From IMG/VR virus record IMGVR_UViG_3300045988_101835: 64,000 nt of DNA, one strand, 5' to 3'. Positions within the stretch are counted from its first letter, which is position 1. The number at the start of each line of letters is the position of its first letter. The notes under the pieces were generated by a model. That model ran no database searches. It was not told the origin of the DNA and saw nothing but the letters and a program-made list of their open reading frames with translations. The stretch is from a virus. Below are positions 9,490 through 61,738 of this stretch, one piece after another. The position numbers were made by a program, and so were the translations under genes.

Positions 9490-9606
9490 TTTACACAGAG
9501 TTATGCTTTATATCAATAATGGTTTTGGTTATTGGTTCTACGACCTAGTGTGCGATTTCTTGGATGGGCTTAGTTATATATCCGATTGGTTCCGGCGGAG
9601 CCACTA

Positions 9607-9622
9607 GTGCAATTCTATATCC
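9607..9622 (+). promoter_or_regulatory. Phage-specific promoter-like motif, C-variant (GTGCAATTCTATATCC)
   Basis: One of 9 copies of a conserved motif. A degenerate half-copy ttatatatcc lies at 9574-9583. Confidence 0.5.
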
Positions 9623-9633
9623 TATTTTTTTTT

Positions 9634-11272: not shown

Positions 11273-11286
11273 TCGTTGTGGTTTAT

Positions 11287-11414: not shown

Positions 11415-11430
11415 GTGCAATTCTATATCC
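11415..11430 (+). promoter_or_regulatory. Phage-specific promoter-like motif, C-variant (GTGCAATTCTATATCC)
   Basis: Identical 16-mer to 9607..9622. Confidence 0.5.
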
Positions 11431-11499
11431 ATATTTTTGTGGCATTGTTTATGCGTTGCACTGTTTTACGTTGATGTTTTTAATTAATTTGTTTTTCTT

Positions 11500-21096: not shown

Positions 21097-21112
21097 GTGC
21101 AATTATATATCC
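21097..21112 (+). promoter_or_regulatory. Phage-specific late-promoter-like motif (GTGCAATTATATATCC followed by tATAAAT)
   Basis: Conserved 16-mer, intergenic, immediately after a terminator. Confidence 0.55.
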
Positions 21113-21154
21113 TATAAATTATATCTAGGCGTGATTGTAGAGCTTCTTTCAGGC

Positions 21155-27032: not shown

Positions 27033-27043
27033 ATTGCATTAAT

Positions 27044-32973: not shown

Positions 32974-33005
32974 TTTGGATTATTAAATTAACTTTTCTAT
33001 CTTTG
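32974..33005 (+). promoter_or_regulatory. Bacteroidota-type promoter (TTTG, 20 nt, TAtcTTTG), second copy of the promoter-leader cassette
   Basis: tttg at 32974-32977 and tatctttg at 32998-33005. Confidence 0.65.
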
Positions 33006-34369: not shown

Positions 34370-35500
34370 ATGTTGACCTACAAGTACAAACTCTATAGGA
34401 CGCATCGGACCATATGGTTGGATCGGATGCTTCGTGAGTGTGCGTTTGTATGGAACCATGCGCTTGCACTTCAACGTAGATACTACCATTTGTACGGTAA
34501 GTACGTTTCGTCGGTAGATATGCAGAAGCATTTCGCCAAACGCATCAAGCGGCATCTATTGTACTCACATAATAGCGTTGAGGTATTACAGAGATTGGAC
34601 GCAGCTTACCAACGGTTCTTCAAGAAGCTTGCTAAGCGTCCGCCTAAGTTTCGCCGGGCTTCAGACTTTCAGTCATTCGTCTACAAACTCCACTATGGCT
34701 ATAAAATAGACGGCAATTGCTTTACAATTAACAGACTTAAGAAAACTTATAAATTTCACAAATCCCGTGACTTTGCGGGTGCAATAAAGACGGTTCGTGT
34801 TAAACGCGATCCATGCGGTGACTTTTGGTTATACATTACAACCGATGCCAAAGTAGAAGCCAGCAACACGACATATGATGGTGCGGTTGTAGGAATTGAC
34901 TTTGGCCTTAAGACATATCTGACGTTATCCGACGGGCGCAGCTATGCGAACCCGCAATTCTTCAAGCAGACGCTGCGCGACATCCGTAAGGCGCATCGTC
35001 GGCTGAGCCGTTCCGTCAAAGGATCCAATAACCACCGCCGTCGGTGGTTGGAGCTTGGTCGGATCTACCGTAGGATTAGCAATCATCGCGACGATTATCA
35101 GTGGCGCTTGGCACATGAGTTATGTCGTCGTTATTCTACGATCTGCTTGGAGACACTAAGCCTTGACGGGATGCGCCGGTTGTGGGGTCGCAAGGTTTCG
35201 GATCTCAGCCACGCATCGTTCGTATCGCACTTGGAATTCGTAGCCACTAAGTATGGCACGAGCGTTGTGCATGTCGACAAGTGGTTTGCTAGCAGCAAGA
35301 CGTGTAGTTGTTGCGGATACGTTAATAAGGAGCTTCGTTTGGTTGCTCGATCGTGGGTTTGTCCACAATGTGGTACGCACCATGATCGTGATCTAAACGC
35401 GGCGTTAAACATTAAGCGTTCGGGCATGGGCGCGTTGATTAGTGGTTGTAAGTCCGCTTCGGCGGCCGCCATGCTTGAGTCAAGAATCCAGCGGCTTTAG
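34370..35500 (+). CDS. tnpB: TnpB RNA-guided endonuclease, copy B
   Basis: 376 aa. VVGIDFGLK, ICLETLS and HDRDLNAALNI motifs. CSCCG...CPQCG zinc ribbon. Confidence 0.9.
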   Translation: MLTYKYKLYRTHRTIWLDRMLRECAFVWNHALALQRRYYHLYGKYVSSVDMQKHFAKRIKRHLLYSHNSVEVLQRLDAAYQRFFKKLAKRPPKFRRASDFQSFVYKLHYGYKIDGNCFTINRLKKTYKFHKSRDFAGAIKTVRVKRDPCGDFWLYITTDAKVEASNTTYDGAVVGIDFGLKTYLTLSDGRSYANPQFFKQTLRDIRKAHRRLSRSVKGSNNHRRRWLELGRIYRRISNHRDDYQWRLAHELCRRYSTICLETLSLDGMRRLWGRKVSDLSHASFVSHLEFVATKYGTSVVHVDKWFASSKTCSCCGYVNKELRLVARSWVCPQCGTHHDRDLNAALNIKRSGMGALISGCKSASAAAMLESRIQRL

Positions 35501-35537: not shown

Positions 35538-35603
35538 CGGGTTGGGTCCTTAAGATTAAGTCTACTCTCTCGGATATGGGTGTTTCTTTGAACAGTGATT
35601 TTT

Positions 35604-37880
35604 ATGGCTGGGGGAAATAGTACTACTACTTTAGCGAATCTTTATCGTCCCAAGACTTTTGCGGACGTCGTGGGCCAGCCTTTGGCGGTTACCACCTTGA
35701 AGCGTATTGCCCATGCGGACGGTATCGCCGCACGTGCTATTTTTATGAAGGGTGCGTTTGGCTCCGGTAAAACTACGACTGCCCGTATTTTTGCTAGAGC
35801 TTTGAACTGTGATACTTTCAAGCAGACTGACGATGTTTGTAATACGTGTGATGGTTGTCTGGAGGCTTCGTCGGTTAATTCCTCTACGTATTGGGAGCTT
35901 GATGGTACAGTCATAGGTAACGTCGAGGGTATTCGTGCTCTGAAGGAGCGCTTGTCTATTGTTCCTAATGGTCGTAGGGTTGTCTGTCTTGACGAAGTTC
36001 AGAGTTGCTTGTACTATAATACACCTGTAGTGTGTGTATCAGATGACGGCAGTATTTACCGTCAGCCGATTCACAAGATTGTTAATAATCGGCTACCTGT
36101 GAAGGTTCTTTCGGTTAACGCTGCGGGAGGTCTTTGTGTTTCTCGTGTTACGGGTTGGTTTAAGAATCCTCTTAAGCAGTTATGTCGTATTAAGGTACGG
36201 GGCGCTTCTGGTCTTAAAAAGATTGGTTCTGGCTCGCGGGTAATAGTTTGTACTTTAGATCATCGCTTTTTACGTTCGGATGGTGAGTATGTTTGTGCTT
36301 CGGACTTACATTTAGGAGATTCGTTGTCATCTTTTTTTAGTGTGTGCGGGGATCGTTTTATTCAGGCAGAGCTTAATAAGCGTACTGAGTATATCATTTC
36401 CGATTCAACAAAGTCGTTCCTTTATGGGAGTCTTTTGGGTGATATGTACTTTTCTTCTGGTGATGTAAATTACAATTATCGTTTGAAGTGCACTCATGGA
36501 CATGTTCAGCTTTTTTGGTTACGTGAGAAGCATCGTATACTTGGGTGCTTAGCTGGGGCCTTGCGGGAGTTTGTTAGCTCGCCGGGTGCTTATGTTGATT
36601 CAGTTTCTGTTATGAATTCGTTGAGTCATCCTTTATTTACCGAGATGGCGAGAGTTTGTTGTGGTTCTGATGGGAAACGTCACGTAAATATGGAGTGGTT
36701 GTCTCATGTCGACGAGATAGGGTTAGCTGCTTGGTTTATGGATGATGGTTCTTATCATTTTCGTCGTTTGCGTAATAAACAGGTAACCTGCTTGCATGGG
36801 GTTCAACTGTCTACTCATAGCTTTACTTATGAGGAAAATGAACTTTTAGTTAAGTGGTTATCTGATCGTTGGGGTCTAGATTTTTATATTAGGGTTGATA
36901 AGAGATGTGGTAAGCCTTACTTAGTTTCTAGTCATGTTGAGTCTGCTAGGAAGTTTTTAGCACTTGTTGCTCCTTTCCTTTGCAAGGAGTTTCAATATAA
37001 GTTAGGTAACACTTTTGAGGCTGGTGGTGGTGTTAGGTCTATTCCAGCAATTTCCAAGCGAGTCCCGGAATACTTCGGCGGTTTTTTATTCGATGGGGTT
37101 GTCGAGAGTATTGAGATTTTTGACCCTCCGAAGTACTCATCTGTTAAATCTGGCTGTTTGTCTAGCGAGAATAAATATCCTTATGATAATGGTTGGGTAT
37201 ACGACTTGGAGGTAGCAGATACTCATTCTTATATTGCAGGCCGGGGATTTGTGGTTCATAACTGCAGCAGGAGTGCGAGTGACGCTTTATTGAAGGTTGT
37301 CGAGGAGGGAGTTCCTAATACGATCTTTCTCTTTTGTGGCACGGAGGATATCCAGCCAACTTTAAAGTCTCGTTGTGTAAATATTGACATTTCGGTTATT
37401 CCTTTGTCTTTGATTGCGGATCGCGTTCGGTTTATAGCTAACGACCGGGGTATCTCTATTACGGATGATCAGCTTCGAATCTTGGCTATGAAGTCTCAGG
37501 GTCACATGCGGGATGCCCTTCAGTTGCTTCAGTTTTACGAGCTTGCGGGCGAACGTGCTCTTGACAGCTCCTACTTCTTGTTCCGGGAGTTTGTGCGCTC
37601 TTGCTTCGCAAAGGGCGCCGATCCTTCGTCCGTTTTGCCAAAGCTGTTGGTTTATTCCACTGCAGATATAAAGATGTCTGTAGGGCTTCTTATTCGCAAT
37701 ATTTTCGGCAGTGTTCAGGATGACTCTTTGGAGTCTAAGTTCCAGCGTGCGGGTCTGGGTCAGACGTTGTTTAGCTTTTTCTTTTCTCCGTTAGCTCAGC
37801 AGGCTTTGGGTTCTGAGATTGGGACAGAGATTTTGCTTAGGTCTTTAATGGAGCGAACTGCGGGTTCTCGAAAGGTGTAG
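35604..37880 (+). CDS. Clamp-loader AAA+ ATPase (DnaX/RFC/gp44-like) interrupted by an intein
   Basis: LYRPKTFADVVGQ, Walker A GAFGSGKTT, Walker B CLDEVQS, then after the intein SASDALLKVVEEGVP and LKSRC. Confidence 0.85.
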   Translation: MAGGNSTTTLANLYRPKTFADVVGQPLAVTTLKRIAHADGIAARAIFMKGAFGSGKTTTARIFARALNCDTFKQTDDVCNTCDGCLEASSVNSSTYWELDGTVIGNVEGIRALKERLSIVPNGRRVVCLDEVQSCLYYNTPVVCVSDDGSIYRQPIHKIVNNRLPVKVLSVNAAGGLCVSRVTGWFKNPLKQLCRIKVRGASGLKKIGSGSRVIVCTLDHRFLRSDGEYVCASDLHLGDSLSSFFSVCGDRFIQAELNKRTEYIISDSTKSFLYGSLLGDMYFSSGDVNYNYRLKCTHGHVQLFWLREKHRILGCLAGALREFVSSPGAYVDSVSVMNSLSHPLFTEMARVCCGSDGKRHVNMEWLSHVDEIGLAAWFMDDGSYHFRRLRNKQVTCLHGVQLSTHSFTYEENELLVKWLSDRWGLDFYIRVDKRCGKPYLVSSHVESARKFLALVAPFLCKEFQYKLGNTFEAGGGVRSIPAISKRVPEYFGGFLFDGVVESIEIFDPPKYSSVKSGCLSSENKYPYDNGWVYDLEVADTHSYIAGRGFVVHNCSRSASDALLKVVEEGVPNTIFLFCGTEDIQPTLKSRCVNIDISVIPLSLIADRVRFIANDRGISITDDQLRILAMKSQGHMRDALQLLQFYELAGERALDSSYFLFREFVRSCFAKGADPSSVLPKLLVYSTADIKMSVGLLIRNIFGSVQDDSLESKFQRAGLGQTLFSFFFSPLAQQALGSEIGTEILLRSLMERTAGSRKV
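36006..37262 (+). mobile_element. Intein (419 aa) with a LAGLIDADG homing endonuclease, inserted after Walker B of the clamp loader
   Basis: Starts at Cys (CLYYNT), block B TLDH, LYGSLLGDMYF and LAAWFMDDGSY, ends VVHN followed by +1 Cys. Confidence 0.85.
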
Positions 37881-37889: not shown

Positions 37890-38468
37890 ATGGTTGATCG
37901 CGTGGATATTGTAGATTTAGATTCTGCTGCTGAGGTTAGTGTTTCGTCGGCTCGTGTTGTTATAGATAAGCGGCTGTTGCTTTCTTTTTACATGCATCCT
38001 ACGGATGAGACTACGGAGGCGGAGCTTGCTGAGATTAATAAGGTCATCAGCATTGTTTTGAATACTCATTTTGGTAAGTATTACCGCATGTTTGATGACT
38101 TGCGTTCGCAGGCTCTTGCTACTATTATAGAGCGTCATGATCGCTTTGACTCGAAGATGGCAGCTTATCCTTATCTGTATACCATGATTCGCAATGAAGC
38201 GGGTAATTTGATTCGTCGTTTGCTTCGTGAGGATGACCTTGAGGTTCTGCCGCCGTCACGCGGTCGTGTTGCAGAGATTATTCCGAGTGTTTTAGACGAG
38301 CTTCTGCCGTTCTTGTCGGGTGACTCTCCGTTTACACGTATAGAGATTCCGCATGGTCTTGTAGGTCCGTTTCTTGTCTTTTGCCAATGTGGCTTAAACA
38401 AGAAACAGTCGGAGTCGGAGGCTATGGAGTCGGTTATCGGCAAATTGGTTGACATTTTTATTTTTTAA
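37890..38468 (+). CDS. Candidate phage sigma factor (sigma-70 region 2 / T4 gp55-like)
   Basis: 192 aa. HDRFDSKMAAYPYLYTMIRNEAGNLIRRLLRE resembles gp55 [30 protein letters not shown]. Hydrophobic tail LVDIFIF. Confidence 0.45.
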   Translation: MVDRVDIVDLDSAAEVSVSSARVVIDKRLLLSFYMHPTDETTEAELAEINKVISIVLNTHFGKYYRMFDDLRSQALATIIERHDRFDSKMAAYPYLYTMIRNEAGNLIRRLLREDDLEVLPPSRGRVAEIIPSVLDELLPFLSGDSPFTRIEIPHGLVGPFLVFCQCGLNKKQSESEAMESVIGKLVDIFIF

Positions 38469-38480: not shown

Positions 38481-39386
38481 ATGGACGAAAATACTATTTT
38501 AGGAGAGGATTCTCCCGTCACGAGTTTGGAGTCTTTGGTTCGTCTCGGCACGGCCACGGAGACGGATTTGGGTATGCAGATGCGTGCCATCATGGTAGGT
38601 GTTTCTACCGCTGCTTGTAACATTGTGGAGCGTCTTCACAATCAGTCTATGGCCTGCGCTAATATTATGCAGCGTCTTTCTGACAAGCATTTGGAGAAGT
38701 TGTCGGAGGAGATCGAGACGATGGATCGCACTGAGCTGGATGTTGAGTATAAGAATCTCATGGCTCGTCAGATCGAGGTTGCCAAGCTGGAGATCAAGAT
38801 TGCTCAGGGTAAGGCTATGTTCCCTGAGGATTCTTTCTCGGAGGAGGATCGTAAGATTCTGCGTATGCTTTCGGCGCTTCGTTCGAAGGAGGATCGCCAG
38901 CGCTTCGTTCGCATTCTGTCGGAGGAGTTCGGTGACGAGAATAGCTTCGATAGCGAGCCTGTGGTTCCTTCGGAGCCTATTTACGATGCAGTCGATCCTG
39001 CTGATTCGGAGTTGACGCGCGGTGGTCGTGTTCGTCGTGCGTCACGTAAGGTTTCGGCTGGCCGCGAGATGCCTCAGGATGAGTTCGCTGAGATGGAAAC
39101 TACGGTTACGGTTGCTCCGGAGAATCCCACGAAATCGGTGGATATTGACGTTGTGGTTCCGGATAGCAGTGTCGGCGTTCCGCAGCACGCTATCGAGCCT
39201 ACGCCGACGTCGGGTGTCGAGGTTGGTCCTGAGTCGCTTGCGGATGCTCCGTCGGATGTCAAGCTTCCGGAGCCGCCGGAGATTCCGGGATTCGAGCTTC
39301 CGCATGATGAGTCTCCGGCTCCTGCGCCTGCTGCTCAGCCTGCTCAGGCGATTCCTGACTTTGAGGACGAGTTCGCAGGCATGTAG
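38481..39386 (+). CDS. Hypothetical protein with a coiled-coil N-domain, P/E/A-rich linker and tip IPDFEDEFAGM
   Basis: ORF-track ORF. The tail was read directly from the sequence. Confidence 0.6.
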   Translation: MDENTILGEDSPVTSLESLVRLGTATETDLGMQMRAIMVGVSTAACNIVERLHNQSMACANIMQRLSDKHLEKLSEEIETMDRTELDVEYKNLMARQIEVAKLEIKIAQGKAMFPEDSFSEEDRKILRMLSALRSKEDRQRFVRILSEEFGDENSFDSEPVVPSEPIYDAVDPADSELTRGGRVRRASRKVSAGREMPQDEFAEMETTVTVAPENPTKSVDIDVVVPDSSVGVPQHAIEPTPTSGVEVGPESLADAPSDVKLPEPPEIPGFELPHDESPAPAPAAQPAQAIPDFEDEFAGM

Positions 39387-39400: not shown

Positions 39401-39415
39401 GTCAATTATATATCC
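39401..39415 (+). promoter_or_regulatory. Late-promoter-like motif variant (GTCAATTATATATCC) overlapping a 9-bp hairpin at 39415-39438
   Basis: 14 of 15 positions match the consensus. Hairpin is ccggaaatc-N6-gatttctgg. Confidence 0.45.
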
Positions 39416-39454
39416 CGGAAATCTTGGTAGATTTCTGGGGTATTTTGTTTGGTT

Positions 39455-39988
39455 ATGAATGAAGGTTTGATTTGCGGTTTATCGCGTGTTGAGGATTCTC
39501 TGGATGATTTGTATTCGGAGGCCTATGTTGCTTCTATGGGCCAGCTTTTGGAGATTGCGGCCTGCGAGGAGATTCTGGCTTGGGCACAGTATGCTGTAGT
39601 TTCTCCCTATCTTGTTGGCGAGGAGCGTGCTAACATCGAGGAGCTTTTCAATACGAATGCCAAGGACGAGCTTGACGATCATTTCTGGAAGCTCCAGAAC
39701 CGCATGAATGAACTTCAGTACGTCCCTAAGACGTTATTTGACTTTTCTAAGATTCAGTCTACCGCCCGTTGTGAGTACCATATCCCTACGGATGTTGCGG
39801 ACTTGATTACGCTTCTCAAGCAGAATATCGAGTCGGAGGAGTGCGCTATTCGCACTTACCAGAATATCATTATGGTTGCCCGTGATAATTCCGATTTTGT
39901 CACGGAGCGTATTGCTAAGGAGATTCAGGACGACGAGGCTCAGCATCTCTCGGACTTGAATGACTTTTTGGCCGACTTGGAGTCTTAG
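39455..39988 (+). CDS. Ferritin-like (bacterioferritin/rubrerythrin-fold) protein
   Basis: EEILAWAQY, KDELDDHF, SEECAIRTY and DDEAQH resemble the E...ExxH...E...ExxH di-iron pattern. Confidence 0.45.
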   Translation: MNEGLICGLSRVEDSLDDLYSEAYVASMGQLLEIAACEEILAWAQYAVVSPYLVGEERANIEELFNTNAKDELDDHFWKLQNRMNELQYVPKTLFDFSKIQSTARCEYHIPTDVADLITLLKQNIESEECAIRTYQNIIMVARDNSDFVTERIAKEIQDDEAQHLSDLNDFLADLES

Positions 39989-40108: not shown

Positions 40109-43100
40109 ATGGGGTCAGTTAAGGATACGATACAGCGTCGGGGTGGTGTTGCTTCTGCCGTCAGCGACTTGCTTCTTACGGAGCGCAAGCTAGTAGGATT
40201 TCGGGAGTTTATTCTTTCTCCAGACTATATGGCTTTGGAGGGGGTCTATCCTTTCTGGTTGAAGGAGGCAGATAACATGCAGGATGACTTGTCTTCACTG
40301 GTGTTGACAGGCTCATTAGGAGGCGGCAAGTGCGTAGTTTACAGCGACTTGGTATCGACGGATCATGGGTACGTTCCTATTGGGTCTTTGGTTCCAGATG
40401 CGGGTTATGGCTTCACACCGTTCGAGGTTGGTGTCGAGCAGCCAGATGGTAGCTTTGCGCAGACGAGTCATTTCTACAAGGAGAAGGACGCGGAGGTGCT
40501 TCACTTGCGTTGTGCTAGTGGTCGGAGTTATAGTGGTACTGCGGATCATCCTCGGTTAGCTTATCGTGTCGGCTCGGATCGCGTTGAGTTGGTTCGCTGT
40601 GGCGACTTGCGTGTCGGTGATTATATCGCCCGCCGTTGGACAGGTAGTATCGAGTTGCATCCGGACGCAGATGAGGCTAAGCTTTATTGCTTGTATGGTG
40701 TCTGGCTTGGGGATGGTCATTTTGATAATGCTGTTCCTCACAATCCAGTTATAGGTTATTTGTCATGTGATACTTTAGCTGATTGGTGTCGTGAGGTTGA
40801 AGGCTATTTGACGAGTAATGCTCATATTTGTAAAGAGAGTGGCTGTCGGTTATATTCGTTGCCGTTGTATCGCTCTAGGCTTCGTGATTTTATAGGTGGT
40901 TACTGTGTCGCTAATACGAAGTATATTCACAGTGCTGCTTTCGGAAGTCGTGAGCGTGCATTTTACACGTTGTATGGTTTGCTTATTACAGATGGGTATG
41001 TAAATAAAGGTCATGGGACGCTTGGGTTTGCTACAGTTTCTCCGCGTTTGGCGGATGGTGTATGTAGCATTCTCGACTATCTTGGTTTGCAGTATAGCAT
41101 CCGGAAGCGTACAGATCGCAAGTATTTTTATAAGAAGGTTGGTGAGTGGCGTCCGGCGCAGGACAGTTATCGGATAACTATATCAGTTGAGTCATCGCAT
41201 GCTTTATACGATGCTATGCTAGCTTACGTTCCTCTCCTTGAGATGGATGCTCCGCATCAGCGTCGTCTTATTGAAGGGCTTCGTGCAGATTTTGAGGCTC
41301 GTGCTAGTAAGAGTTCTCGAATAAACTGTAAGACTACTTTCAAGTTAGAAGGTGCTGAGGTTGGCATAGTGGCGCAGCTGCGTTCGGTTCGTCAGTTGAC
41401 GGATGTGTCGACGCGAAATAAGTTTGATTCTTATGCTAGGACTACCCATTCTATGTTGGGGAATAAAGCTGCATCCAATCAGGCTTTCGAACGTTTGCGA
41501 GCGTGGTTGGAGGATCGAGGTCAGACGTTGCCGGACAACTTGGCTTCTTTTTGTGATGTTCGTTTTGACCGAATTGAGAGTATTGATACGACGGTTGAGG
41601 ATGTTTATGATGTTACAGTTCCTTCGACGCATTTGTTCATGTCGGGGAATGTGGTGAATCATAATACGTCTTACCTGAATATGGTTACTTGCTATAAGTT
41701 GTATTGCTGGTTTAGTCAGGGCGACTTGTATAACTATTTTCAAATCCTTCGTGGTACGCCTATTTACTTTTTGTACTTCTCTGTATCGATGAAGGCTGCG
41801 GAGCGTTCTGGTTTCAAGCAGTTGCGACAGATGATTGATAATGCCCCGTGGTTTAAAAATAATTTTCCGCGCCGTAAGGACATTCAGTCTTCCATTCAGT
41901 TTAATAATAATTTCTCAATTGAGTTTGCTTCGGGTGAGAGTCATGCTATTGGTTTGAATGTCGTTGGTGCTATTATTGACGAGGCTAATTTCAGGAATGG
42001 TGTCGGTCAGGGTACTGTTTCAGAGTATTCGGAGGTCCAGCGTTTGGCTCAGCAGTTGGAGGACCGTATGCATTCTCGTTTTACCCGTGAGGGCGGTAAG
42101 TTGATTTCTTTCATGGGGTACATTTCCTCGGCTTCTTATCAGTCTTCGTTTATCGAGGAGAAGGTTGCCGAGTTGGCATCTGATCCGCAGGGTCGTGTTA
42201 TTAATGCCGTTCAGTATAAGATTTGTCCTCAGAATTACTCGCCTAAGAAGTTCGAGGTGTTCTGTGGCTACCAGCAGATTTCCCCGTGTATTGTCCAGAG
42301 CAAGGAGCATAAGGCTACGCTTGTGAAGTCTATGAGTCTTCCGAAGTCTAAGGCGGAGGGTTATTTCGAGCGTGTTCCGGAGGATCTGAAGTCGCAGTTC
42401 AAGAAGAACATCTATCTGGCCATCCAGAATCATTGCGGACGTTCTACAGCGGCTAAGGGTAGCTTCATCACGAACTATGATGTCGTTCGCAAGGCGTATA
42501 GTGATGCGTTGCTTCGTGCGTGTCCTTTGGTTCAGAGTAGTATTGTTGTCTCGGATCAGGACGATACTCCTATCCGCTCTGTTCTGGATATTTCACGTTT
42601 ACAGTATACGGATCGTCCTCATGCCCTGTGCTTGGACTTGTCTTTGACGGGCGACCACGGTTCTTTGTGCTGTGTTCGGTTTGATGGCTATGCGGCAGAC
42701 GGCAGGGCTTTGCATAATGAGGTTTTCAACTTAGAGCTTGTTCCTCCGGCGTTTCCGGGGATGTTGAAGGTTTCGAAGGTCGAGGATTTCATTTTGTGGC
42801 TTGCAGAGCATTTGAATATTGTGGTTTTTAGTACTGACCAGTTCCAGTCCACGCAGCTTCGTCAGAATGTGTGCGAGGCTTTGATGCTTCCGGATATCCG
42901 CCTTTCTTTGGATAGTTCCGACATTCCTCATTTGTTGTGGCTTTCGATGTTAGTTGACGAGCGTCTTGGTCTTCTTTACTTGGAGCGTCAGGATCGAGAG
43001 ATTCGGGAGGCGGTCCATGATGTTGTCAAGCATAAGGTTGTCAAGCGTGACGGGTCTTCAGACGACCAGTTCCAGACTTTGGTCGGTGCCTTCTTCTTGT

Positions 43101-43414
43101 CGGAGACGATCTGTACGCAGGAGGGGGATATATCGTCCTTGCTTGATGCGCGCCTTAACTTGGTTGGTGCAGGTAATATTAACCGTATGCTTAAGTCGCT
43201 TGGCTATGGTGGCGTTGCTTTGGATGGCCGGGGTCAGGTTGCCCGTGCTGCTGTTTCGGACGTCGAGGCTCCGCGTCCGAGTGTCCGTTCGCTTCTGGAG
43301 GGTCGTGCTGCTTCGGGTCCGTCGTTTACGAGTTCTGATGTTATTGCTTCGATGACGCCGCGTCGTAGACGTGGTGGTGTCTGGGATTTGATTAATGGTT
43401 TGGGCGACAAGTGA
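40109..43414 (+). CDS. terL: Terminase large subunit interrupted by an intein
   Basis: The P-loop GSLGGGK|...|TSY is reconstituted after intein removal. Walker B-like GAIIDEANF. Sits upstream of the portal-size gene. Confidence 0.85.
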   Translation: MGSVKDTIQRRGGVASAVSDLLLTERKLVGFREFILSPDYMALEGVYPFWLKEADNMQDDLSSLVLTGSLGGGKCVVYSDLVSTDHGYVPIGSLVPDAGYGFTPFEVGVEQPDGSFAQTSHFYKEKDAEVLHLRCASGRSYSGTADHPRLAYRVGSDRVELVRCGDLRVGDYIARRWTGSIELHPDADEAKLYCLYGVWLGDGHFDNAVPHNPVIGYLSCDTLADWCREVEGYLTSNAHICKESGCRLYSLPLYRSRLRDFIGGYCVANTKYIHSAAFGSRERAFYTLYGLLITDGYVNKGHGTLGFATVSPRLADGVCSILDYLGLQYSIRKRTDRKYFYKKVGEWRPAQDSYRITISVESSHALYDAMLAYVPLLEMDAPHQRRLIEGLRADFEARASKSSRINCKTTFKLEGAEVGIVAQLRSVRQLTDVSTRNKFDSYARTTHSMLGNKAASNQAFERLRAWLEDRGQTLPDNLASFCDVRFDRIESIDTTVEDVYDVTVPSTHLFMSGNVVNHNTSYLNMVTCYKLYCWFSQGDLYNYFQILRGTPIYFLYFSVSMKAAERSGFKQLRQMIDNAPWFKNNFPRRKDIQSSIQFNNNFSIEFASGESHAIGLNVVGAIIDEANFRNGVGQGTVSEYSEVQRLAQQLEDRMHSRFTREGGKLISFMGYISSASYQSSFIEEKVAELASDPQGRVINAVQYKICPQNYSPKKFEVFCGYQQISPCIVQSKEHKATLVKSMSLPKSKAEGYFERVPEDLKSQFKKNIYLAIQNHCGRSTAAKGSFITNYDVVRKAYSDALLRACPLVQSSIVVSDQDDTPIRSVLDISRLQYTDRPHALCLDLSLTGDHGSLCCVRFDGYAADGRALHNEVFNLELVPPAFPGMLKVSKVEDFILWLAEHLNIVVFSTDQFQSTQLRQNVCEALMLPDIRLSLDSSDIPHLLWLSMLVDERLGLLYLERQDREIREAVHDVVKHKVVKRDGSSDDQFQTLVGAFFLSETICTQEGDISSLLDARLNLVGAGNINRMLKSLGYGGVALDGRGQVARAAVSDVEAPRPSVRSLLEGRAASGPSFTSSDVIASMTPRRRRGGVWDLINGLGDK
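40331..41665 (+). mobile_element. Intein (445 aa) with a LAGLIDADG homing endonuclease, inserted in the TerL Walker A loop
   Basis: Starts at Cys (CVVYSD), block B TADH, LYGVWLGDGHF and LYGLLITDGYV, ends VNHN followed by +1 Thr. Confidence 0.85.
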
Positions 43415-43427: not shown

Positions 43428-43443
43428 GTGCAATTATATATCC
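43428..43443 (+). promoter_or_regulatory. Late-promoter-like motif (GTGCAATTATATATCC followed by tATAAAT)
   Basis: Intergenic, 20 nt before the ATG at 43464. Confidence 0.55.
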
Positions 43444-43463
43444 TATAAATTTATATTTTGATT

Positions 43464-45723: not shown

Positions 45724-45755
45724 TTTGCATAATAAAATTAATATCTTTATATTTG
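45724..45755 (+). promoter_or_regulatory. Bacteroidota-type promoter driving the toxin cassette
   Basis: tttg at 45724-45727 and tatatttg at 45748-45755, with 20-nt spacing. Confidence 0.65.
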
Positions 45756-45776: not shown

Positions 45777-46028
45777 ATGAGTGACTTTATAACTGCAATT
45801 TGTGATTTTGAAGATGATGATGCTCGTCCTCTTTCGGAGCGGGTCAATGATGCTGACTTTGACGAGGCTGCGTGGTTAGCACAGGCTACGGAGGATGCAC
45901 GTGCGGAGGGGTTTGCTGATCCTGAGCGTGTAGCTCGCAATTATCTTTACACTCTGCGTCATCCTTTTGAAGAGCGAGTGCCGTTGGAGGATGTTTTAGC
46001 TAAGCTTCGTGCGACTTACGGCATATAA
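45777..46028 (+). CDS. Small acidic protein, paralog 1 (candidate antitoxin)
   Basis: DFDEAAWLAQATEDARAEGFADP...PLEDVLAKL. Overlaps the toxin start by 20 nt. Confidence 0.6.
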   Translation: MSDFITAICDFEDDDARPLSERVNDADFDEAAWLAQATEDARAEGFADPERVARNYLYTLRHPFEERVPLEDVLAKLRATYGI

Positions 46029-46299
46029 GGTTGTTTTTCGTAAGTCTGCTTTAAAGGCTTTTGAGAAGTATATCGATAGGATTCAGCCAGCTAGGCGTGC
46101 GAGAGCTTTAGAGGTGGTAGAGTCTTTAGCTGTTTCTCCACGTAGTGGTATTGGAGCCAAGCATATGCTTAAGGGTTCTTTTAATAGGCGGTGGGCTTGT
46201 TCTGTGACTCCTTCGGCGCGGCTTTTGTATCATATTGAGGATGATGTGTTGGTAGTCGATATATTTGATTTTAGTGTTGATCATTATAGGGATGTTTAG
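46009..46299 (+). CDS. YoeB/Txe-like (RelE superfamily) toxin
   Basis: YKVVFRKSALKAF..., LKGSFNRRWACSVTPSARLLYHIEDDVLVVDIFDFSVDHY resembles YoeB [33 protein letters not shown]. GTG start. Confidence 0.7.
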   Translation: MRLTAYKVVFRKSALKAFEKYIDRIQPARRARALEVVESLAVSPRSGIGAKHMLKGSFNRRWACSVTPSARLLYHIEDDVLVVDIFDFSVDHYRDV

Positions 46300-47399: not shown

Positions 47400-47445
47400 C
47401 CTCGGGTGTTGCATGACGTCAGTCGTGCAATGTCCGAGGGTTTTT
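47400..47445 (+). terminator. Terminator (cctcgg...ccgagg outer stem with an inner ttgcatgac/tcgtgcaa stem, then T5)
   Basis: Read directly from the sequence. Lies in the spurious 5' extension of ORF-track ORF 47364. Confidence 0.6.
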
Positions 47446-47449: not shown

Positions 47450-47465
47450 GTGCAATTATATATCC
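47450..47465 (+). promoter_or_regulatory. Late-promoter-like motif (GTGCAATTATATATCC)
   Basis: 27 nt before the ATG at 47493. Confidence 0.55.
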
Positions 47466-47492
47466 TTAAAATTAAAAATTGTTTTAGGATAT

Positions 47493-49724: not shown

Positions 49725-49738
49725 GCAATTATATATCC
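49725..49738 (+). promoter_or_regulatory. Late-promoter-like motif (GCAATTATATATCC followed by cATAAAT)
   Basis: 13 nt before the ATG at 49752. Confidence 0.55.
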
Positions 49739-49751
49739 CATAAATTCGGAG

Positions 49752-50459
49752 ATGATGTTTAACAAGGTCTTTGCAACATACAAGAGTCAGTTTAAGGTTG
49801 TAGACTCTACGGAGGCGGCAGATGGTACCCGGATTCCTATTATTCGTGGTGCTGCGTCGCATACGGATGTTCAGAGCCAGAAGGGCTACCGTTATCGCTC
49901 TGGTTTCTGGGATAAGGTGATTAATGATCCTGCGCTTCAGCAGCGCATTGAGGAGCGGGATATGCTTGGCATGATCGAGCATCCTACGGATGACTCGGAT
50001 TACATGCGGACGCCTTTGGATAAGGCATCGCATGTTGTGATGCGTGCATGGGTTGATGAGTCTTCGCATGACCCGTGGATTGATTGTGGGTTGCTTAACA
50101 ATCCGGATGGTAACGCTATTAAGGCTTTGGTTGATGTAGGTTTTCGTCCGGGTTGCAGCACTCGCGGTCTTGGTGACTATTTGATGGATTCGATTTCCGA
50201 GTATCTGGACCCTGATACTTTCACGGTTATTACTTGGGACTTGGTCAAGTCGCCGAATTTCGGAGACATTAGGTTGGAACGCGTATCGGATTCCTTGCTG
50301 GCTTCGCCGATTTTCAAGGAGGCTGTGCAGATGTATCAGTTACGAGACTCTGTAGACGATGCTTATAATCCCGACCGTTTGTTATTGGAGACGCGCCGCG
50401 CCATTTCCGCGCTTCAGGATTTATGTTCTGCTCTTGAGCGCAGTTGTCAGCGGTCTTAG
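49752..50459 (+). CDS. T4 gp21-like prohead core protease
   Basis: MLGMIEHP resembles ALGELNHP, GFRPGCSTRGLGDY resembles GWIPGVSSRGLGSL, and WDLVKSPNF resembles VDAVWGPSAP. Confidence 0.75.
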   Translation: MMFNKVFATYKSQFKVVDSTEAADGTRIPIIRGAASHTDVQSQKGYRYRSGFWDKVINDPALQQRIEERDMLGMIEHPTDDSDYMRTPLDKASHVVMRAWVDESSHDPWIDCGLLNNPDGNAIKALVDVGFRPGCSTRGLGDYLMDSISEYLDPDTFTVITWDLVKSPNFGDIRLERVSDSLLASPIFKEAVQMYQLRDSVDDAYNPDRLLLETRRAISALQDLCSALERSCQRS

Positions 50460-50505: not shown

Positions 50506-52002
50506 ATGACTGATTATTTATCTTTGGACGCACGCCGCGTTACTGATAGTATCGCCGCTGCTCGTGCCGACAAGCGCACTGCAAAAGCCATGCTGAAGTC
50601 GGAGAAGCTTGGCAATCTGACTACGCTTAAGGAGCGTGGTATTCAGGCTGGTATTCTGAACAACTTCAGCCGTGCCATTCAGGATTCTATTGATGCTCCC
50701 GCTACTCGCGGTCAGCAGGTTAACATGATGTCGGACTTCGGACCTTACATTCCGGAGGTCTTCCCCATCGTTGCCGCTTGGTATCCCGACTTCCCGCTGA
50801 AGGACCTGATCTCGGTTCAGGACATGAATCAGGATTTGGCTTACCTGTTCTTCTCGAAGCTGGTTACTGGCACCAACAAGGCTCCCACGATTACGGGTCA
50901 GGTTGTTGAGACCGCTACGGGTATGCGTCAGATCAACGGCTACTATCCTACGGGTGAGATCATGGGTGAGACCATTCCGGAGGAGCAGCTTGAGTACGAC
51001 GCCACCACGAACGAGCTTGTAGCCATGACGGCTTACTACGCTCTGAACACCAGTGGTGATTATCTGGAGAAGTTCCTCATCAATGTTTACAAGGGCAACG
51101 CTATCGTTGCTACCCTGATTGCTACGACCGTTCAGAACGGCAAGGTTATGCTGGTCAACAGTGCTAACCCCGGTGTTTCGAATGGCTCGTACATGGTCGT
51201 TGAGTCGGGTGCCATCATGCTGGCTTCTGCTGACATCGACAACATTAAGGCTACGACAGGTGTTTGTCTGAACGTGAACTACGTTTGGAACCTCGACTAC
51301 GCTATTCAGGAGAACATTCCGAAGGTTAAGGAGCAGGTTGAGCGTGTTGAGATGCGCGCTATTCCCCGTGCTATCGGCATGGAGTGGACGATCTTCGCCG
51401 AGGCTCTGAAGAAGTCGCAGTTCAACACCGACATTCGCGTTGAGAACACCAAGCGCGTCCTTGATCTTCTGTACCAGTATCAGGTTCGTTACATCCTCGA
51501 TACCATGTGGACCTACGCTGCAGGTGCTCCCGGTACCATTACTCTCAACATGTCCAACAACTTCTCGCTGGACGTACAGGCCGCTGACCTCATGCGTCAG
51601 CTCAAGCAGTACGCTACGCAGATCGAGATCGCTACGGGCCGTATCGAGGGTAACCGTCTTGTCGTCGGCAAGAACCTGAAGTCGTTCCTCGAGTCGCTGC
51701 CCACCACGTGGTTCAAGCCTGTTGCTACACCGAGCGGCTTCTCGTCGCCCCGCGAGATCGGTACCTTTGGGACTTTCAAAGTGTACTACGATCCCTACCG
51801 CGCCGACAACGAGGCCTTCATGACCTACCGGGGGGATCAGTGGTTTGATGCTGCATTTTATTGCGGGATTTACTTACCTATCGTTCCGACGGATACTGTG
51901 GCACTTGGGGTTACGGTCCGTCAGTCTATGGTCAGCATGGAAGCGTATTTGTTCCATAAGAAGACGGCGGTGGTTCGCCTTACGGTTAACTACGGGGCCT
52001 AG
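50506..52002 (+). CDS. T4 gp23-like major capsid protein
   Basis: IEIATGRIEGNRLVVGKNLKSFLESL resembles IARQTGRGEGNFIIASRNVVNVLASV, and GTFKVYYDPYRADNEAFMTYRG...AAFYCGIYLPIV resembles GKYRVYIDQYAKQDYFTVGYKG...AGIYYAPYVAL. C/G-ending codon bias. Confidence 0.85.
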   Translation: MTDYLSLDARRVTDSIAAARADKRTAKAMLKSEKLGNLTTLKERGIQAGILNNFSRAIQDSIDAPATRGQQVNMMSDFGPYIPEVFPIVAAWYPDFPLKDLISVQDMNQDLAYLFFSKLVTGTNKAPTITGQVVETATGMRQINGYYPTGEIMGETIPEEQLEYDATTNELVAMTAYYALNTSGDYLEKFLINVYKGNAIVATLIATTVQNGKVMLVNSANPGVSNGSYMVVESGAIMLASADIDNIKATTGVCLNVNYVWNLDYAIQENIPKVKEQVERVEMRAIPRAIGMEWTIFAEALKKSQFNTDIRVENTKRVLDLLYQYQVRYILDTMWTYAAGAPGTITLNMSNNFSLDVQAADLMRQLKQYATQIEIATGRIEGNRLVVGKNLKSFLESLPTTWFKPVATPSGFSSPREIGTFGTFKVYYDPYRADNEAFMTYRGDQWFDAAFYCGIYLPIVPTDTVALGVTVRQSMVSMEAYLFHKKTAVVRLTVNYGA

Positions 52003-52198: not shown

Positions 52199-53239
52199 AT
52201 GTTTTCGGGGATTATTTATTTACGTATTAGTCCTAGTAATAAAGGGTATGTTGGTCAGACTATTGACGAGGCGGGCCGCGATTGGGAGTTTGGTAATTTA
52301 AATAAGCGTTATGGTGGTGCAGCCATCGAGGCCGCACGCCGTAAGTATCCTCCTTCGTTGTGGCGTAAATTCACTATATGTACGGTTAACGCTCGTAATC
52401 GGGACGAGCTTCGAGTTTGGCTTGATGCTCTGGAGGTATATTACATTTGGGCTTTCCAGACTGCCGATAAACGGTATGGTTACAATGCGAAGCTAGGAGG
52501 TAATAGTCGTGGTGGGTATCGTCATTCGGAGGAGACACTACGCAAGATAGGTGCTGGTAATAAGGGGAAAGTTGTTTCTCCGGAGGCACGCGCTATAATT
52601 GCGTCTAAGCTGCGAGGACGTAAGCGTCCTTTGTCTGCTTGTGTAAAGACTTCGTTGGCTATGCGAGGTCATGTGTGGTCTCCGGAGACTTGTGCCAAAC
52701 GTTCGGCAGCTTTACGGGGTCGTAAGCTACCTCCTAATAGCGCTGTATTTTCGGAGGAGTATCGTCAGCGTCATCGTGAGTTGTCTGCTGGTCGTCTTCA
52801 TAGTCAGGCTGCTAAGAATAAGGTTTCTATTTCTAAGGGTTATCGTCCCGTTCTGGTTTATGATCGCGCTTCGGGTTCTTTTCTTGGTGAGTTTCAGACG
52901 CGCGTAGAGGCTGCTGCTCTTGGAGGTATACTTCCACATCAGATAGCACAGTCTTTTTCTGCACATCCGGGCGCGTTGTGGGTGTGCATTAAGAGTCATG
53001 TGTATGCATCGTCTGATCCTTCGTTGTCACGTGTTTCTCTTTGTGACAATGGGTATACTCCGGTTCTTCCTCCGTCGCAGCGTTCTATTAGCTGTGTCTC
53101 TTTACGCGGCAAGGACTTGGGTTGTGATAGCTTGTCAGGCTGGGAGTCTCGTCTAGGCATACGTCGTAATAATATTCTCCGTGTTTGCAATGGTGATCGA
53201 AATGTTGCTGGCGGCTACGTTTTCCGCTATGTAGGCTAG
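52199..53239 (+). CDS. GIY-YIG homing endonuclease with NUMOD3-like repeats (free-standing)
   Basis: GIIYLRISPSNKGYVGQT, YGYN, repeated H/S.E(E)T..K(I/L)....G modules, GGYVFRY at the C-terminus. Confidence 0.8.
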   Translation: MFSGIIYLRISPSNKGYVGQTIDEAGRDWEFGNLNKRYGGAAIEAARRKYPPSLWRKFTICTVNARNRDELRVWLDALEVYYIWAFQTADKRYGYNAKLGGNSRGGYRHSEETLRKIGAGNKGKVVSPEARAIIASKLRGRKRPLSACVKTSLAMRGHVWSPETCAKRSAALRGRKLPPNSAVFSEEYRQRHRELSAGRLHSQAAKNKVSISKGYRPVLVYDRASGSFLGEFQTRVEAAALGGILPHQIAQSFSAHPGALWVCIKSHVYASSDPSLSRVSLCDNGYTPVLPPSQRSISCVSLRGKDLGCDSLSGWESRLGIRRNNILRVCNGDRNVAGGYVFRYVG

Positions 53240-57551: not shown

Positions 57552-57707
57552 ATGGTCGTTCTGGATGTCTTTGAGTTTCTCATTGGGGTTGTTCTATATC
57601 TTCTAGGGTTTTGGCTTGCCTGTGCGGTTCTTTTTGCGGTCTTGGGTTACCTTTATTGGTTTGTGGGCCTCCTAGTGCGCGCGTGCAATTATATATCCCA
57701 CAAATAA
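57552..57707 (+). CDS. Small membrane protein (51 aa)
   Basis: MVVLDVFEFLIGVVLYLLGFWLACAVLFAVLGYLYWFVGLLV... The 3' end overlaps the promoter motif. Confidence 0.4.
   Translation: MVVLDVFEFLIGVVLYLLGFWLACAVLFAVLGYLYWFVGLLVRACNYISHK
57683..57698 (+). promoter_or_regulatory. Late-promoter-like motif (GTGCAATTATATATCC followed by cAcAAATA)
   Basis: 21 nt before the ATG at 57720. Confidence 0.55.
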
Positions 57708-57719: not shown

Positions 57720-58058
57720 ATGGATTTGTATAGTGTTTTGTCTGCAGACTTTGCTACGTTTCAGGAGGAGCTTGAGGCAACGGCGCCTAAGTCGGATGCT
57801 TGGGTTATCAGTGGTGAGGGTGATGCTGCTGTTTTGAAAGGTAAGCTTTCGCAGGCGTCTTTTGAGATTTCCAAGGATGCCGACAGTCAGGATGTCCGTA
57901 TGGATATTGTCGGCTCGGATATTCCTTCGTCGGTCCATGCTATTGTTCTGAATACAGTGTTCGACGACGCTATGTCTGCGGTTGCTGCTGCTGTTCAGAT
58001 CAACGGTGTTTATTCGGAGGCTTTGTCTTCTGTTAATGACATTCTGCGTAACGCCTAG
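57720..58058 (+). CDS. Hypothetical late/structural protein
   Basis: First gene after the motif. Confidence 0.55.
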   Translation: MDLYSVLSADFATFQEELEATAPKSDAWVISGEGDAAVLKGKLSQASFEISKDADSQDVRMDIVGSDIPSSVHAIVLNTVFDDAMSAVAAAVQINGVYSEALSSVNDILRNA

Positions 58059-58064
58059 TTTTCT

Positions 58065-58850: not shown

Positions 58851-58855
58851 GTTCT

Positions 58856-59422: not shown

Positions 59423-59436
59423 TTTTTTTTTATATT

Positions 59437-59961: not shown

Positions 59962-59962
59962 C

Positions 59963-60730: not shown

Positions 60731-61738
60731 ATGTATCGGGGTATTATTTACTTGCGGACTTCGCCGTCGGTTAAGTACTACGTCGGCTTGACCACGAATG
60801 AGACCAAGCGTCAGGAGTATTGGTTAAATACCAAGCGCGACTACGGTGGTTATCTAATTCGTGACGCCCGGAAGCGTTATCCGCCGGAGACGTGGGGCTA
60901 CACGGTTTTGGCGGAGGTCTTTAGTCCTTCGCGGTCGGACCTTATGGTTTGGCTTAATGCGCTGGAGGTCTACTTCATTTGGCGTTACGACTCTAATAAC
61001 CCGGAGCATGGTTATAACCTCACACGCGGTGGTGAGGGTCGTCTTGGCTACAAGTGCCGTCCGGAGGTTAAGGCGCGTCTTTCTGCTTTGTACAAGGGTC
61101 GCCCGCTTTCCGAGGAGACGAAGGAGAAAATCTCTCGTGCGGCTAAGGGCCGCAAGGCTTCGGAGGAGACACGACGGAAGCTGTCGGCTGCTCATAAGGG
61201 CAGAAAGCATTCAGAGGCTGCTAGGCGTGCTATGTCTTTAGCTTTGCGTGGGGTTCCGCATCATGCAGGTACTGGGCTTATTTTATCAGCTATCCACAAG
61301 GGGCGCAGACTTGATCCATCTCATGTTGCTAAGTTGCATGCTGCTAATCGTAAGGCTGTGCTACAGTATTCATTGTCGGGTGAGTTGCTGGCGGAGTTTG
61401 ATAGCGCTGTTGAGGCAAGTGCTGCGCTGGGAGTTTGTTATGGCCCTATTAGTCAGTGTTGTCGCGGCACTTTAAAGACGGCTTATGGGTTCAAGTGGGT
61501 TTTCAAGAATCCTGCACCGCCAGCCATCAAGCGTTCAGATCGTTATGTGGGTCAGTTCAGTTTGGAGGGCGAGTTGCTGCATGTTTATCCGTCTGCAGTT
61601 GCTGCCGCTAAGGCGACTTCTGGTCTTGTCTATGGTATTCGTGGATGCTGTAGAGGGGAGCATATTACGTCGGGTGGTTTCCGTTGGCATTATGTACATA
61701 AAGATACTCATGCAATTATATATCCCATAAATAAATAA
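60731..61738 (+). CDS. GIY-YIG homing endonuclease with NUMOD3 repeats, paralog of ORF 52199
   Basis: GIIYLRTSPSVKYYVGLT, YGYN, SEETKEKIS / SEETRRKLS / HSEAARRAMS repeats, YGFKWVF and GGFRWHYV. Confidence 0.8.
   Translation: MYRGIIYLRTSPSVKYYVGLTTNETKRQEYWLNTKRDYGGYLIRDARKRYPPETWGYTVLAEVFSPSRSDLMVWLNALEVYFIWRYDSNNPEHGYNLTRGGEGRLGYKCRPEVKARLSALYKGRPLSEETKEKISRAAKGRKASEETRRKLSAAHKGRKHSEAARRAMSLALRGVPHHAGTGLILSAIHKGRRLDPSHVAKLHAANRKAVLQYSLSGELLAEFDSAVEASAALGVCYGPISQCCRGTLKTAYGFKWVFKNPAPPAIKRSDRYVGQFSLEGELLHVYPSAVAAAKATSGLVYGIRGCCRGEHITSGGFRWHYVHKDTHAIIYPINK
61711..61725 (+). promoter_or_regulatory. Late-promoter-like motif (TGCAATTATATATCC followed by cATAAATA) embedded in the last codons of the homing-endonuclease gene
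   Basis: 26 nt before the sheath ATG at 61752. Confidence 0.55.

Follow-up and report, generated by a model that had tools for sequence, protein, structure and literature searches.

A TATATAT-centred box before late genes of a divergent T4-like phage of gut Bacteroidales: a probable late-class promoter and a candidate phage sigma factor

Introduction

Just upstream of the portal block in a 64,000-nucleotide stretch of phage DNA (IMG/VR record IMGVR_UViG_3300045988_101835, here called the window), a short intergenic word recurs almost letter for letter before several other gene blocks, and the question is what this word does and which protein reads it. A sequence-only reading of the window had treated its copies as a candidate phage-specific middle or late promoter and had not recognised it as a described one; we likewise found no published description of the motif in the literature searched, on Bacteroides phage sigma factors and late promoters, including the Far-T4 paper. 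The kind of element is known, namely phage late promoters read by a phage sigma factor, with T4 as the prototype. What sets this instance apart is a TATATAT core within 19 fixed positions, its conserved flanks, the sigma family, the type of host and an arrayed sister element.

Results

The window belongs to a very divergent T4-like phage

All genes of the window lie on the + strand. Those that can be identified encode a Gp23-type major capsid protein, a T4-type portal, a prohead protease and a head-fibre-like protein; the large terminase and the clamp loader are each split by a LAGLIDADG intein, and further genes encode UvsX, a Metallophos (Mre11-like) protein, methyltransferases, TnpB/IS605 proteins and NUMOD endonuclease-like proteins. 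Pfam and PHROG scans gave no match for most genes behind the boxes. An unannotated human-faecal fragment encodes a capsid protein 97% identical to that of the window, and identity to that of any isolate is 28% at most. The same proteins are found on gut metagenome contigs of up to 117 kb, and near relatives have been binned with a Muribaculaceae MAG and a Bacteroidales MAG. The window comes from a T4-like, very divergent myovirus of gut Bacteroidales. A DNA search of 50,697 phage records with the 8 kb surrounding the site returned no match, nor did Rfam and tRNA scans of the window.

Host-type Bacteroidota promoters (TTTG-N17-21-TAnnTTTG) also occur in the window, nine on the + strand and none on the − strand, with six of the nine intergenic. 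They precede other genes, including the operon of the phage sigma factor and inserted accessory genes. Such primary-sigma promoters (−33 TTTG, −7 TAnnTTTG) resemble the box in genome, strand and intergenic placement 5' of genes, but their sequence is entirely different and the two classes serve different gene sets. Neither TTTG near −33 nor TAnnTTTG near −7 is present at any box site in the window, which agrees with the earlier remark that the motif is unlike the host-type promoters found alongside it.

The box is sharply defined and strand-specific

The full signal spans 20-22 bases, GCAATTATATATCC-NNN-AAAT, and stands just 5' of head and other late genes. Searched as GCAATT(A/C)TATATCC with at most one mismatch, the motif occurs as nine full copies and one half-copy, on the coding strand only and nearly always between genes. 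A scan of the window with AATTMTATATCC, again at up to one mismatch, gave ten matches, all on the + strand (Table 1), against 0.52 expected by chance, and ten or more matches were seen in 0 of 100 shuffles. The ten fall at the sites listed by the sequence-only reading, whose coordinates include a GTGC prefix. On the + strand the 14-mer GCAATTATATATCC is matched exactly six times, with one mismatch three times, with two mismatches never and with three mismatches twice, while the − strand of the window holds nothing at two mismatches or fewer. Because of the gap in this spectrum and the empty − strand, the motif is sharply defined and strand-specific, and not the top of a degenerate distribution. 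The A form of the box has 19 specified positions, namely 14 contiguous bases plus AAAYT.

Table 1. Boxes, host-type promoters and sigma-operon genes in the window
Position	Strand	Feature	AATTMTATATCC match start	Context
9572..9583	+	Half-copy AGTTATATATCC	9572	39 nt 5' of C-form box
9609..9630	+	C-form box GCAATTCTATATCC, T-rich tail	9611	5' of small acidic ORF (9634-9744) and uvsX (9816-10925)
11417..11438	+	C-form box	11419	Poorly coding stretch between uvsX and 396-aa gene
21099..21120	+	A-form box	21101	18 nt 3' of terminator hairpin (21056-21080)
32974..33005	+	Host-type promoter		Head of operon with clamp loader and sigma gene
3666, 16925, 27043, 34319, 45724, 52052		Other host-type promoter sites		
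35595..37880	+	Clamp-loader subunit (DNA_pol3_delta2), LAGLIDADG intein inside		Immediately 5' of sigma gene
37890..38468	+	Small sigma-like protein, 192 aa, sigma-70 region 2		Candidate specificity factor
38481..39386	+	301-aa protein		Next gene after sigma; syntenic in four clades
39402..39423	+	A-form box TCAATTATATATCC-CGG-AAAT	39404	Then ferritin-like gene and large terminase
43430..43451	+	A-form box GCAATTATATATCC-TAT-AAATT	43432	Then 217-aa gene (ATG 43464) and portal gene
47452..47473	+	A-form box	47454	12 nt 3' of strong terminator (47400-47439)
49725..49746	+	A-form box	49727	Then prohead protease (49752-50459) and Gp23-like major capsid protein (50506-52002)
57685..57706	+	A-form box	57687	Then five unknown genes (57723-60604), structural region
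61712..61733	+	A-form box	61714	Overlaps 3' end of NUMOD homing-endonuclease-like ORF

By a crude gene map, eight of the nine full copies start within the 7.2% of the window that is intergenic; the remaining one (61712) runs over the final codons of the gene upstream. The window copies lie 11-70 nt from the next start codon when measured from CC, the same range as given before. Also as described earlier, several copies follow a terminator: terminator-like hairpins with T-runs lie directly 5' of 21101 and 47454, and one overlaps the copy at 39404. The statement that most copies precede head, neck or tail genes holds for the portal block, the head-fibre-like gene, the prohead protease with the capsid protein and other blocks of the structural region; it fails for two A-form copies, of which one precedes the ferritin-like gene and the other four unknown genes. 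The latter genes, behind the 21099 box, encode proteins of about 197, 251, 188 and 1276 aa.

Two other readings were rejected: a MITE or other mobile repeat, since the flanks of the copies are unrelated within one genome, and a link to the TnpB/IS605 genes, since no box adjoins such genes. The box forms no structure of its own. Raw over-representation of the TATATAT heptamer was also rejected as a signal, its counts being non-significant; the heptamer is special only in placement and strand.

The A form is conserved in near relatives and its core in distant ones

An exact 14-mer scan of viral contigs gave mostly chance single matches, and only multi-hit contigs were informative. On five IMG/VR contigs with capsid proteins 66-70% identical to that of the window, GCAATTATATATCC is unchanged at orthologous positions while the intergenic flanks have diverged. 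The conserved places are those before the gene 5' of the portal, the head-fibre-like gene, the protease and capsid genes, a 600-aa gene and the ferritin-like gene. For example, the 43430 box is unchanged at the orthologous position in L004-L008, with diverged flanks, and the same five loci have orthologous sites for the 47452 box, which precedes the head-fibre-like gene (ATG at about 47492), and for the 61712 box, which precedes a 607-aa gene (61752-63575). The L007 counterpart of the 49725 box reads GCGATTATATATCC, and this site was also footprinted by alignment. Orthologues of the 57685 site were found in L001 and L003, and of the 39402 site in L125-L128. Within the 39402 box, ATATATCC opens the 5' arm of a hairpin that is followed by a T-run (39410-39443); this hairpin of 18 bp is conserved and shows three compensatory pairs.

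Conservation extends beyond the 12-mer by which sites were selected. Among 31 unique sites, GC stands 5' of the box in 29, and the tail at +15 to +19 is A, A, A, T/C, T, independently of site selection. The tail kept across relatives is accordingly NNN-AAA-(T/C)-T, and the (C/T)ATAAAT first described as the tail of the motif is particular to the window clade. A spacing survey covered 51 unique sites over all loci, 48 of them with a callable downstream ORF. For 35 of these 48 the distance from the first A of AATT to the ATG is 28-39 nt; at some sites it is 51-154 nt, with mobile genes inserted between.

More distant phages were located through the sigma protein described below, with a 14-sequence subset of the family, the full alignment being too diverse; several sigma relatives lie on contigs too short for promoters to show. 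Two loci with a sigma protein about 50% identical carry GCAATTATATATCG and GCAATTATATATCT, each 3' of a terminator (L132), and TCAATTATATATAC (L138). L140 (sigma 36%) has GGTTATATATCCcATAAAc 5' of its ferritin gene. L168 (33%) has ggtTATATATTtnnnAAAA, five times on the coding strand versus none on the other, and L169 (31%) has gggGTTATATATTT, three times versus none, with two copies clearly 3' of hairpins. L139 (27%, in a genome of 34% GC) has TATATATTTAAtAAA seven times, five copies with a start codon within 25-55 nt. One L139 copy precedes the gene 5' of the portal, where TATATATTTAATAAA occupies the position equivalent to the 43430 box. The boxes of L139 and L168 read TATATATTT.

All clades share TATATAT, five bases and then usually AAA, about 25-40 nt 5' of start codons and on the coding strand, whereas GCAAT and CC are clade-specific outer parts that are fully replaced in other clades. 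The sequence-only reading had likened the ATAAAT tail to the T4 late promoter TATAAATA. That resemblance is not conserved in the relatives, where the shared element is the TATATAT inside the box. Because it is shared across clades, unlike the ATAAAT tail, TATATAT is the better candidate for a −10-like element. AAAYT was tried in the same role and rejected: several genes would then have leaders no longer than 2-3 nt, and AAAYT is not kept in L169.

A small sigma-region-2 protein is encoded in the window

The product of ORF 37890-38468 had been put forward as the specificity factor for the box. Its identity as a small sigma-region-2 protein was borne out by Pfam, by profile comparison, by an AF2 model and by Foldseek; its pairing with the box is taken up in the Discussion. 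The ORF matches Pfam Sigma70_r2 at 24.7 bits (cut-off 24). An exhaustive profile search for the family gave 82 cluster representatives of about 180-200 aa, and among the 72 members that were aligned and scanned Sigma70_r2 was found in 37 and region 4 in one. Compared with the PDB, the family profile matched ECF sigma factors (best E 1.5e-5). An AF2 model built on the 72-sequence alignment reached a pLDDT of 84.6, compared with 40 when only six sequences were supplied, and Foldseek aligned the model with region 2 of sigmaE (probability 0.99, TM 0.67). Phage sigma factors were among the Foldseek matches too, those annotated as gp55 at E 0.3-0.5 only. An hhalign comparison with T4 gp55 was weak (probability 47%, E 2e-4, 104 columns), with the match running collinearly from the N-terminus through region 2. 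A tblastn search with the sigma protein against the 50,697 phage records found no match even at E 1, and single-sequence PDB searches with the sigma, the 1276-aa ORF and the 301-aa ORF gave nothing useful. The family has not been described before and is only marginally gp55-like.

The order of clamp loader and sigma gene is kept in L140 and L141, and in L132 the sigma gene has a host-type promoter of its own immediately 5'. A sigma gene placed behind a host-type promoter is what one would expect if the factor is produced early and acts late. In the family of the 301-aa protein encoded next, the N-domain and a C-terminal PDFxDEFxGM are conserved and are joined by a variable linker rich in acidic residues and proline, and no Pfam, PHROG or PDB match was obtained for it, even when the family profile was compared with the PDB. 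Its hydrophobic and acidic C-terminus resembles the clamp-binding tails or epitopes of the same character in T4 gp33, gp55 and gp43 (PMC2988020). By this analogy the 301-aa protein is a candidate gp33-like co-activator, which we offer as a lead. Neither a sliding clamp gene nor a gp33 homologue was identified among the proteins scanned.

The sigma family, at 27-55% identity, co-occurs with TATATAT(-N5-AAA) in L132, L138, L140, L139, L168 and L169. This co-occurrence follows phylogeny and is therefore no proof of recognition.

The C form is a separate, sometimes arrayed class

The C form (AATTCTATATCC) has a T-rich tail, with TTT where the A form has AAA. It is a separate class, related to the A form. 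In the window the C form is not arrayed, and the A form consists of dispersed single copies before genes. In a clade at 67% identity the C form is conserved, but there it makes up tandem arrays of 2-5 units, 42-63 nt apart, each array lying in about 1 kb of non-coding DNA with a G-rich tract on its 5' side. One array lies 3' of uvsX and ends in a unit orthologous to the window copy at 11419; the two share the downstream gttttacgttgat, and the window copy itself has a G/T-rich tract 5' of it. The other lies about 65 nt 5' of an A-form box in the late region, a site at which the window clade has the A-form box only (L136:20095). The half-copy of the window also has a counterpart, in that L161 carries the related GCATTATATATCC 5' of the same small ORF. 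The C copies had been listed as a variant of the motif, and the motif as a whole as a middle or late promoter. Given the missing AAA start region and the tandem arrays in relatives, the C form is not simply a variant of one signal and cannot be taken for a plain middle promoter.

The spacing within the arrays is too tight for independent open complexes, and possible roles are tandem weak promoters, sites of a separate protein, an origin or a sigma sink. Because the C form is nearly identical to the A form, its arrays, too tight for independent polymerase complexes, also count against the reading of the A form as a sigma-dependent promoter, fitting a DNA-binding protein better than a holoenzyme. 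That the C form, and perhaps the half-copy, is no promoter at all, serving instead as iterons, as an R-loop-type replication origin or as a decoy that titrates sigma or holoenzyme, we regard as a serious though rather unlikely alternative. The arrays themselves point this way, with their 2-5 units at 42-63 nt, their place in about 1 kb of non-coding DNA, behind uvsX in one case and within the late region in the other, and their G-rich tracts 5', as does TTT in place of the AAA start region. The T4 origins oriF(uvsY) and oriG(34) are promoter-plus-unwinding-element units and would be precedents for the origin version. Against it, the C form of the window clade is single-copy and in front of genes, the array spacings are out of helical phase, no initiator protein is known, and the last unit of an array is followed by a conserved leader and gene, as a promoter would be.

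It is also conceivable, though we would put little weight on it, that one phage factor reads the box in two modes, firing late transcription at the A form and using the C-form arrays as origins or as a sponge that sets the time of the late switch. The R-loop or open-complex origins oriF and oriG of T4 would be the counterpart of the arrays. If this were true, replication and late transcription would be physically coupled by a shared DNA word in a phage clade with a host polymerase of the unusual Bacteroidota type.

Discussion

How the A-form box might be read

We propose that the A-form box is, in all likelihood, the late-class promoter of this phage, read by host RNA polymerase carrying the small phage sigma factor. 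Where boxes follow intrinsic terminators, as several do in the window and also in L132 and L169, the genes behind them need a new start. Early in infection, host RNA polymerase with the host primary sigma factor would read the TTTG/TAnnTTTG promoters, and the early genes would include the operon of the clamp loader, the sigma factor (37890-38468) and its 301-aa partner. The phage sigma, essentially region 2 alone like T4 gp55, would then redirect the host core enzyme to the box. There TATATAT would act as the −10-like element, at about −13 to −7, and CC with the three variable bases as the discriminator; the start point would be the second A of the conserved AAA, about 16 nt downstream of the first A of AATT, leaving leaders of 12-23 nt. 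GCAAT and CC would be additions particular to the clade, to which the signal owes its unusual length and exactness. This register is suggested by spacing and by conservation across clades; the start of transcription at the box, the sigma factor as its reader and any role of a sliding clamp or of the 301-aa protein are inferred as well.

The site at 39404 bears on the level at which the box acts. The hairpin at 39410-39443 could terminate the sigma operon, and a transcript that starts after the CC of this box could not form it. This favours a start signal in DNA over an RNA leader element.

Alternative readers of the box

The box could instead be the operator of a separate phage DNA-binding activator comparable to T4 MotA, Mu C or P2 Ogr, and lie over or just 5' of a weak core promoter; the sigma factor would then not be the source of specificity, and the C-form arrays would be further sites of the same protein. 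A second DNA-reading protein has room in the scheme because a region-2-only sigma is not expected to read bases at about −19 to −14 with such strictness. The length and exactness of the box would suit an activator, and so would the tandem C-form arrays at 42-63 nt and the way in which GCAAT and CC are strict within a clade and wholly replaced in others. The core common to the sigma-bearing clades is nevertheless a readily melting TATATAT, suitably spaced from a conserved A-rich start region, as a −10-like element would be, and the box offers the host sigma no −7 element (TAnnTTTG). Moreover, no candidate protein was identified, and the 301-aa neighbour has no detectable DNA-binding domain. We consider the activator unlikely, if worth keeping in mind.

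Promoters of single-subunit polymerases are typically contiguous, nearly invariant signals of about 20 bp that adjoin the start site. The box has this appearance: it is contiguous and nearly invariant over about 20 bp, abuts the presumed start and is repeated before late blocks, as T7-type promoters are. It might then belong to a phage-encoded RNA polymerase, T7-like single-subunit or divergent two-barrel (crAss-like), for which very large ORFs without assignable function would offer room (1276 aa in the window; 2288, 3084 and at least 1794 aa in relatives). However, no RNA-polymerase Pfam family occurs in the gene tables over about 80 kb, of a genome of at least 117 kb, and no DxDGD catalytic motif in the + strand ORFs of the window or of six related loci. 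The 1276-aa ORF is itself behind an A-form box, and the phage encodes a sigma factor, which makes sense only with the host core enzyme. A phage polymerase as reader is very improbable. Just as improbable is a box that works at the RNA level, as a 5'-leader element that activates translation or directs the processing of polycistronic transcripts: the tight start-codon spacing (28-39 nt at 35 of 48 sites) and strict strand specificity would fit, but several boxes lie directly 3' of strong terminators and out of reach of upstream transcripts, the 39404 box is sequestered in a terminator hairpin, some sites are 51-154 nt from the ATG with mobile genes between, and the box has neither an Rfam match nor structure of its own.

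Comparison with T4

Read as a late promoter recognised by a phage sigma, the A-form box has its nearest counterpart in T4. The T4 late promoter is the 8-bp TATAAATA, placed similarly to the −13 to −7 proposed here. It consists of a −10-like element only (PMC7892883), and the upstream DNA is not conserved (PMC7892883, PMC2988020). The two systems are alike in several respects. First, the phage itself is T4-like, with a Gp23-type capsid protein, a T4-type portal, a clamp loader and UvsX. Second, an A/T-only, −10-like core lies immediately 5' of late structural genes with no −35 element. Third, the sigma protein is a small region-2 protein of 192 aa, compared with 185 aa for gp55, and its gene adjoins that of the clamp loader. 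The differences are equally clear. Where T4 has 8 bp, the box is fixed over 14 contiguous bases plus AAAYT and has TATATAT as its core; the window clade thus does not show the bare −10-like element of the T4 type, since GCAAT and CC-N3-AAAYT are also fixed, and the distant clades with only TATATAT-N5-AAA come closer to it. BLAST and HMMER detect no similarity between the sigma protein and gp55, the matches being to Sigma70_r2 and ECF sigmas instead. In addition, the host is a member of the Bacteroidales whose polymerase uses −33/−7 promoters, and a second, arrayed form of the box exists.

T4 middle promoters, with a MotA box at −30 and a host −10 element and used by sigma appropriation, offer a further comparison. 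They too combine a phage-specific upstream box with a downstream A/T element, and the C form here stands in front of recombination genes. Unlike the MotA box, the box described here abuts its A/T core and does not lie at −30, there is no host −7 element, and no MotA or AsiA homologue was detected among the proteins scanned.

Significance

Our analysis offers a concrete, testable pairing of promoter and sigma factor in T4-like phages of gut Bacteroidales, an abundant clade that is uncultured and has no known transcription signals. The box allows late genes to be called in genomes that are largely unannotatable, most proteins here having no family match, and arrays of the C form may point to origins or to a regulatory sink. 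If the pairing of sigma and box holds, it would offer an orthogonal expression switch for Bacteroides engineering, and it would show a gp55-type late system adapted to a host polymerase of the −33/−7 type.

Overlapping and repeated forms of the candidate promoter box

At window positions 39410–39443 the candidate promoter box itself supplies the 5' arm of a terminator hairpin. Members of the 67% clade (relatives whose capsid protein is about 66–70% identical) retain this hairpin, and the base changes in it are compensatory. The segment is a compact overlap of a predicted terminator and a candidate promoter.

The C form, GCAATTCTATATCC, a sister motif of the A-form candidate late-promoter box, occurs in the same clade as tandem arrays of 2–5 units, spaced 42–63 nt apart in non-coding DNA, which lie 3' of uvsX and also shortly upstream of a late A-form box. 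In the window clade it is single-copy (window 9609–9630 and 11417–11438). Window 11260–11400, flanked by a terminator hairpin on one side and the C-form box on the other, is an extremely G/T-rich tract with GGGG runs, possibly a G-quadruplex or R-loop-prone sequence; comparable G-rich tracts lie upstream of the arrays in L161 and L151.

Coordinates of promoters, arrays and genes in the window and related loci
Feature	Position	Remark
Host-type promoter, conserved spacer block	3666–3697
Host-type promoter, conserved spacer block	16925–16956
Host-type promoter, conserved spacer block	27043–27074
Host-type promoter, conserved spacer block	32974–33005
Host-type promoter, conserved spacer block	45724–45755
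C-form array	L161:10640–10982
C-form array	L151:10633–10812
C-form arrays		L152, L147, L154, L157, L159, L163
TnpB/OrfB_IS605	235–1344
TnpB/OrfB_IS605	34370–35500	own host-type promoter at 34319
TnpB/OrfB_IS605	L136:13818–14996
NUMOD-type endonuclease-like	52199–53239	own host-type promoter at 52052
NUMOD-type endonuclease-like	60689–61738
Tad3-family protein	15234–15938	accessory, anti-defence
ParE-toxin-like ORF	46009–46299	accessory; weak match; within head module
Ferritin-like gene	39455–39988	accessory; under late-type box
927-aa protein	28166–30949	accessory; sub-threshold radical-SAM matches
Gene of protein with C-terminal tail	38481–39386	...IPDFEDEFAGM
Gene of protein with C-terminal tail	7808–8767	...EDFPEDFGGSSF
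Gene of protein with C-terminal tail	13552–13974	...LPDFDDDDALA
Gene of protein with C-terminal tail	9634–9744	...DDDDWVFYADL

Mobile elements, candidate tRNA genes and host evidence

One phage genome carries three TnpB/OrfB_IS605 (Cas12f-like) genes. Contig L134, otherwise collinear with the window, is without the second window copy, and in the related locus L005 a TnpB gene separates an A-form box from its gene. Inteins with LAGLIDADG endonuclease domains split both the clamp loader (35595–37880) and the large terminase (40109–43414).

A tRNA scan of the 64,000-nt window found no tRNA genes. L140, a distant relative, has two candidate tRNA genes, spotted by eye at 7494–8101 in the long intergenic region just 5' of its TTATATATCC box. 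Near relatives (L172, L176, L177, L187 (CANQWS010000007.1 / 32.1) and L186) are binned in two MAGs, one from a rabbit-gut Muribaculaceae bacterium and the other from a member of the Bacteroidales; this binning is weak host evidence, and their presence there is likely an artefact of it.

Shared C-terminal tails

The C-termini of several window proteins resemble one another, each being a tail of hydrophobic and acidic residues. The 36-aa acidic ORF preceding uvsX is kept in L161, where its tail reads ...EDYVFYSDF. The tails may serve as a common docking peptide, for example toward a sliding clamp or an SSB partner.

Host-type promoters with a conserved spacer

Similarity among the host-type promoters of the window extends beyond TTTG and TAnnTTTG into the spacers, where the sequence (A)TTAAATTAA(T/C)T is conserved; L132, L138 and L140 have it too. 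This conservation suggests an early promoter of phage-specific flavour, or a site for an added factor.
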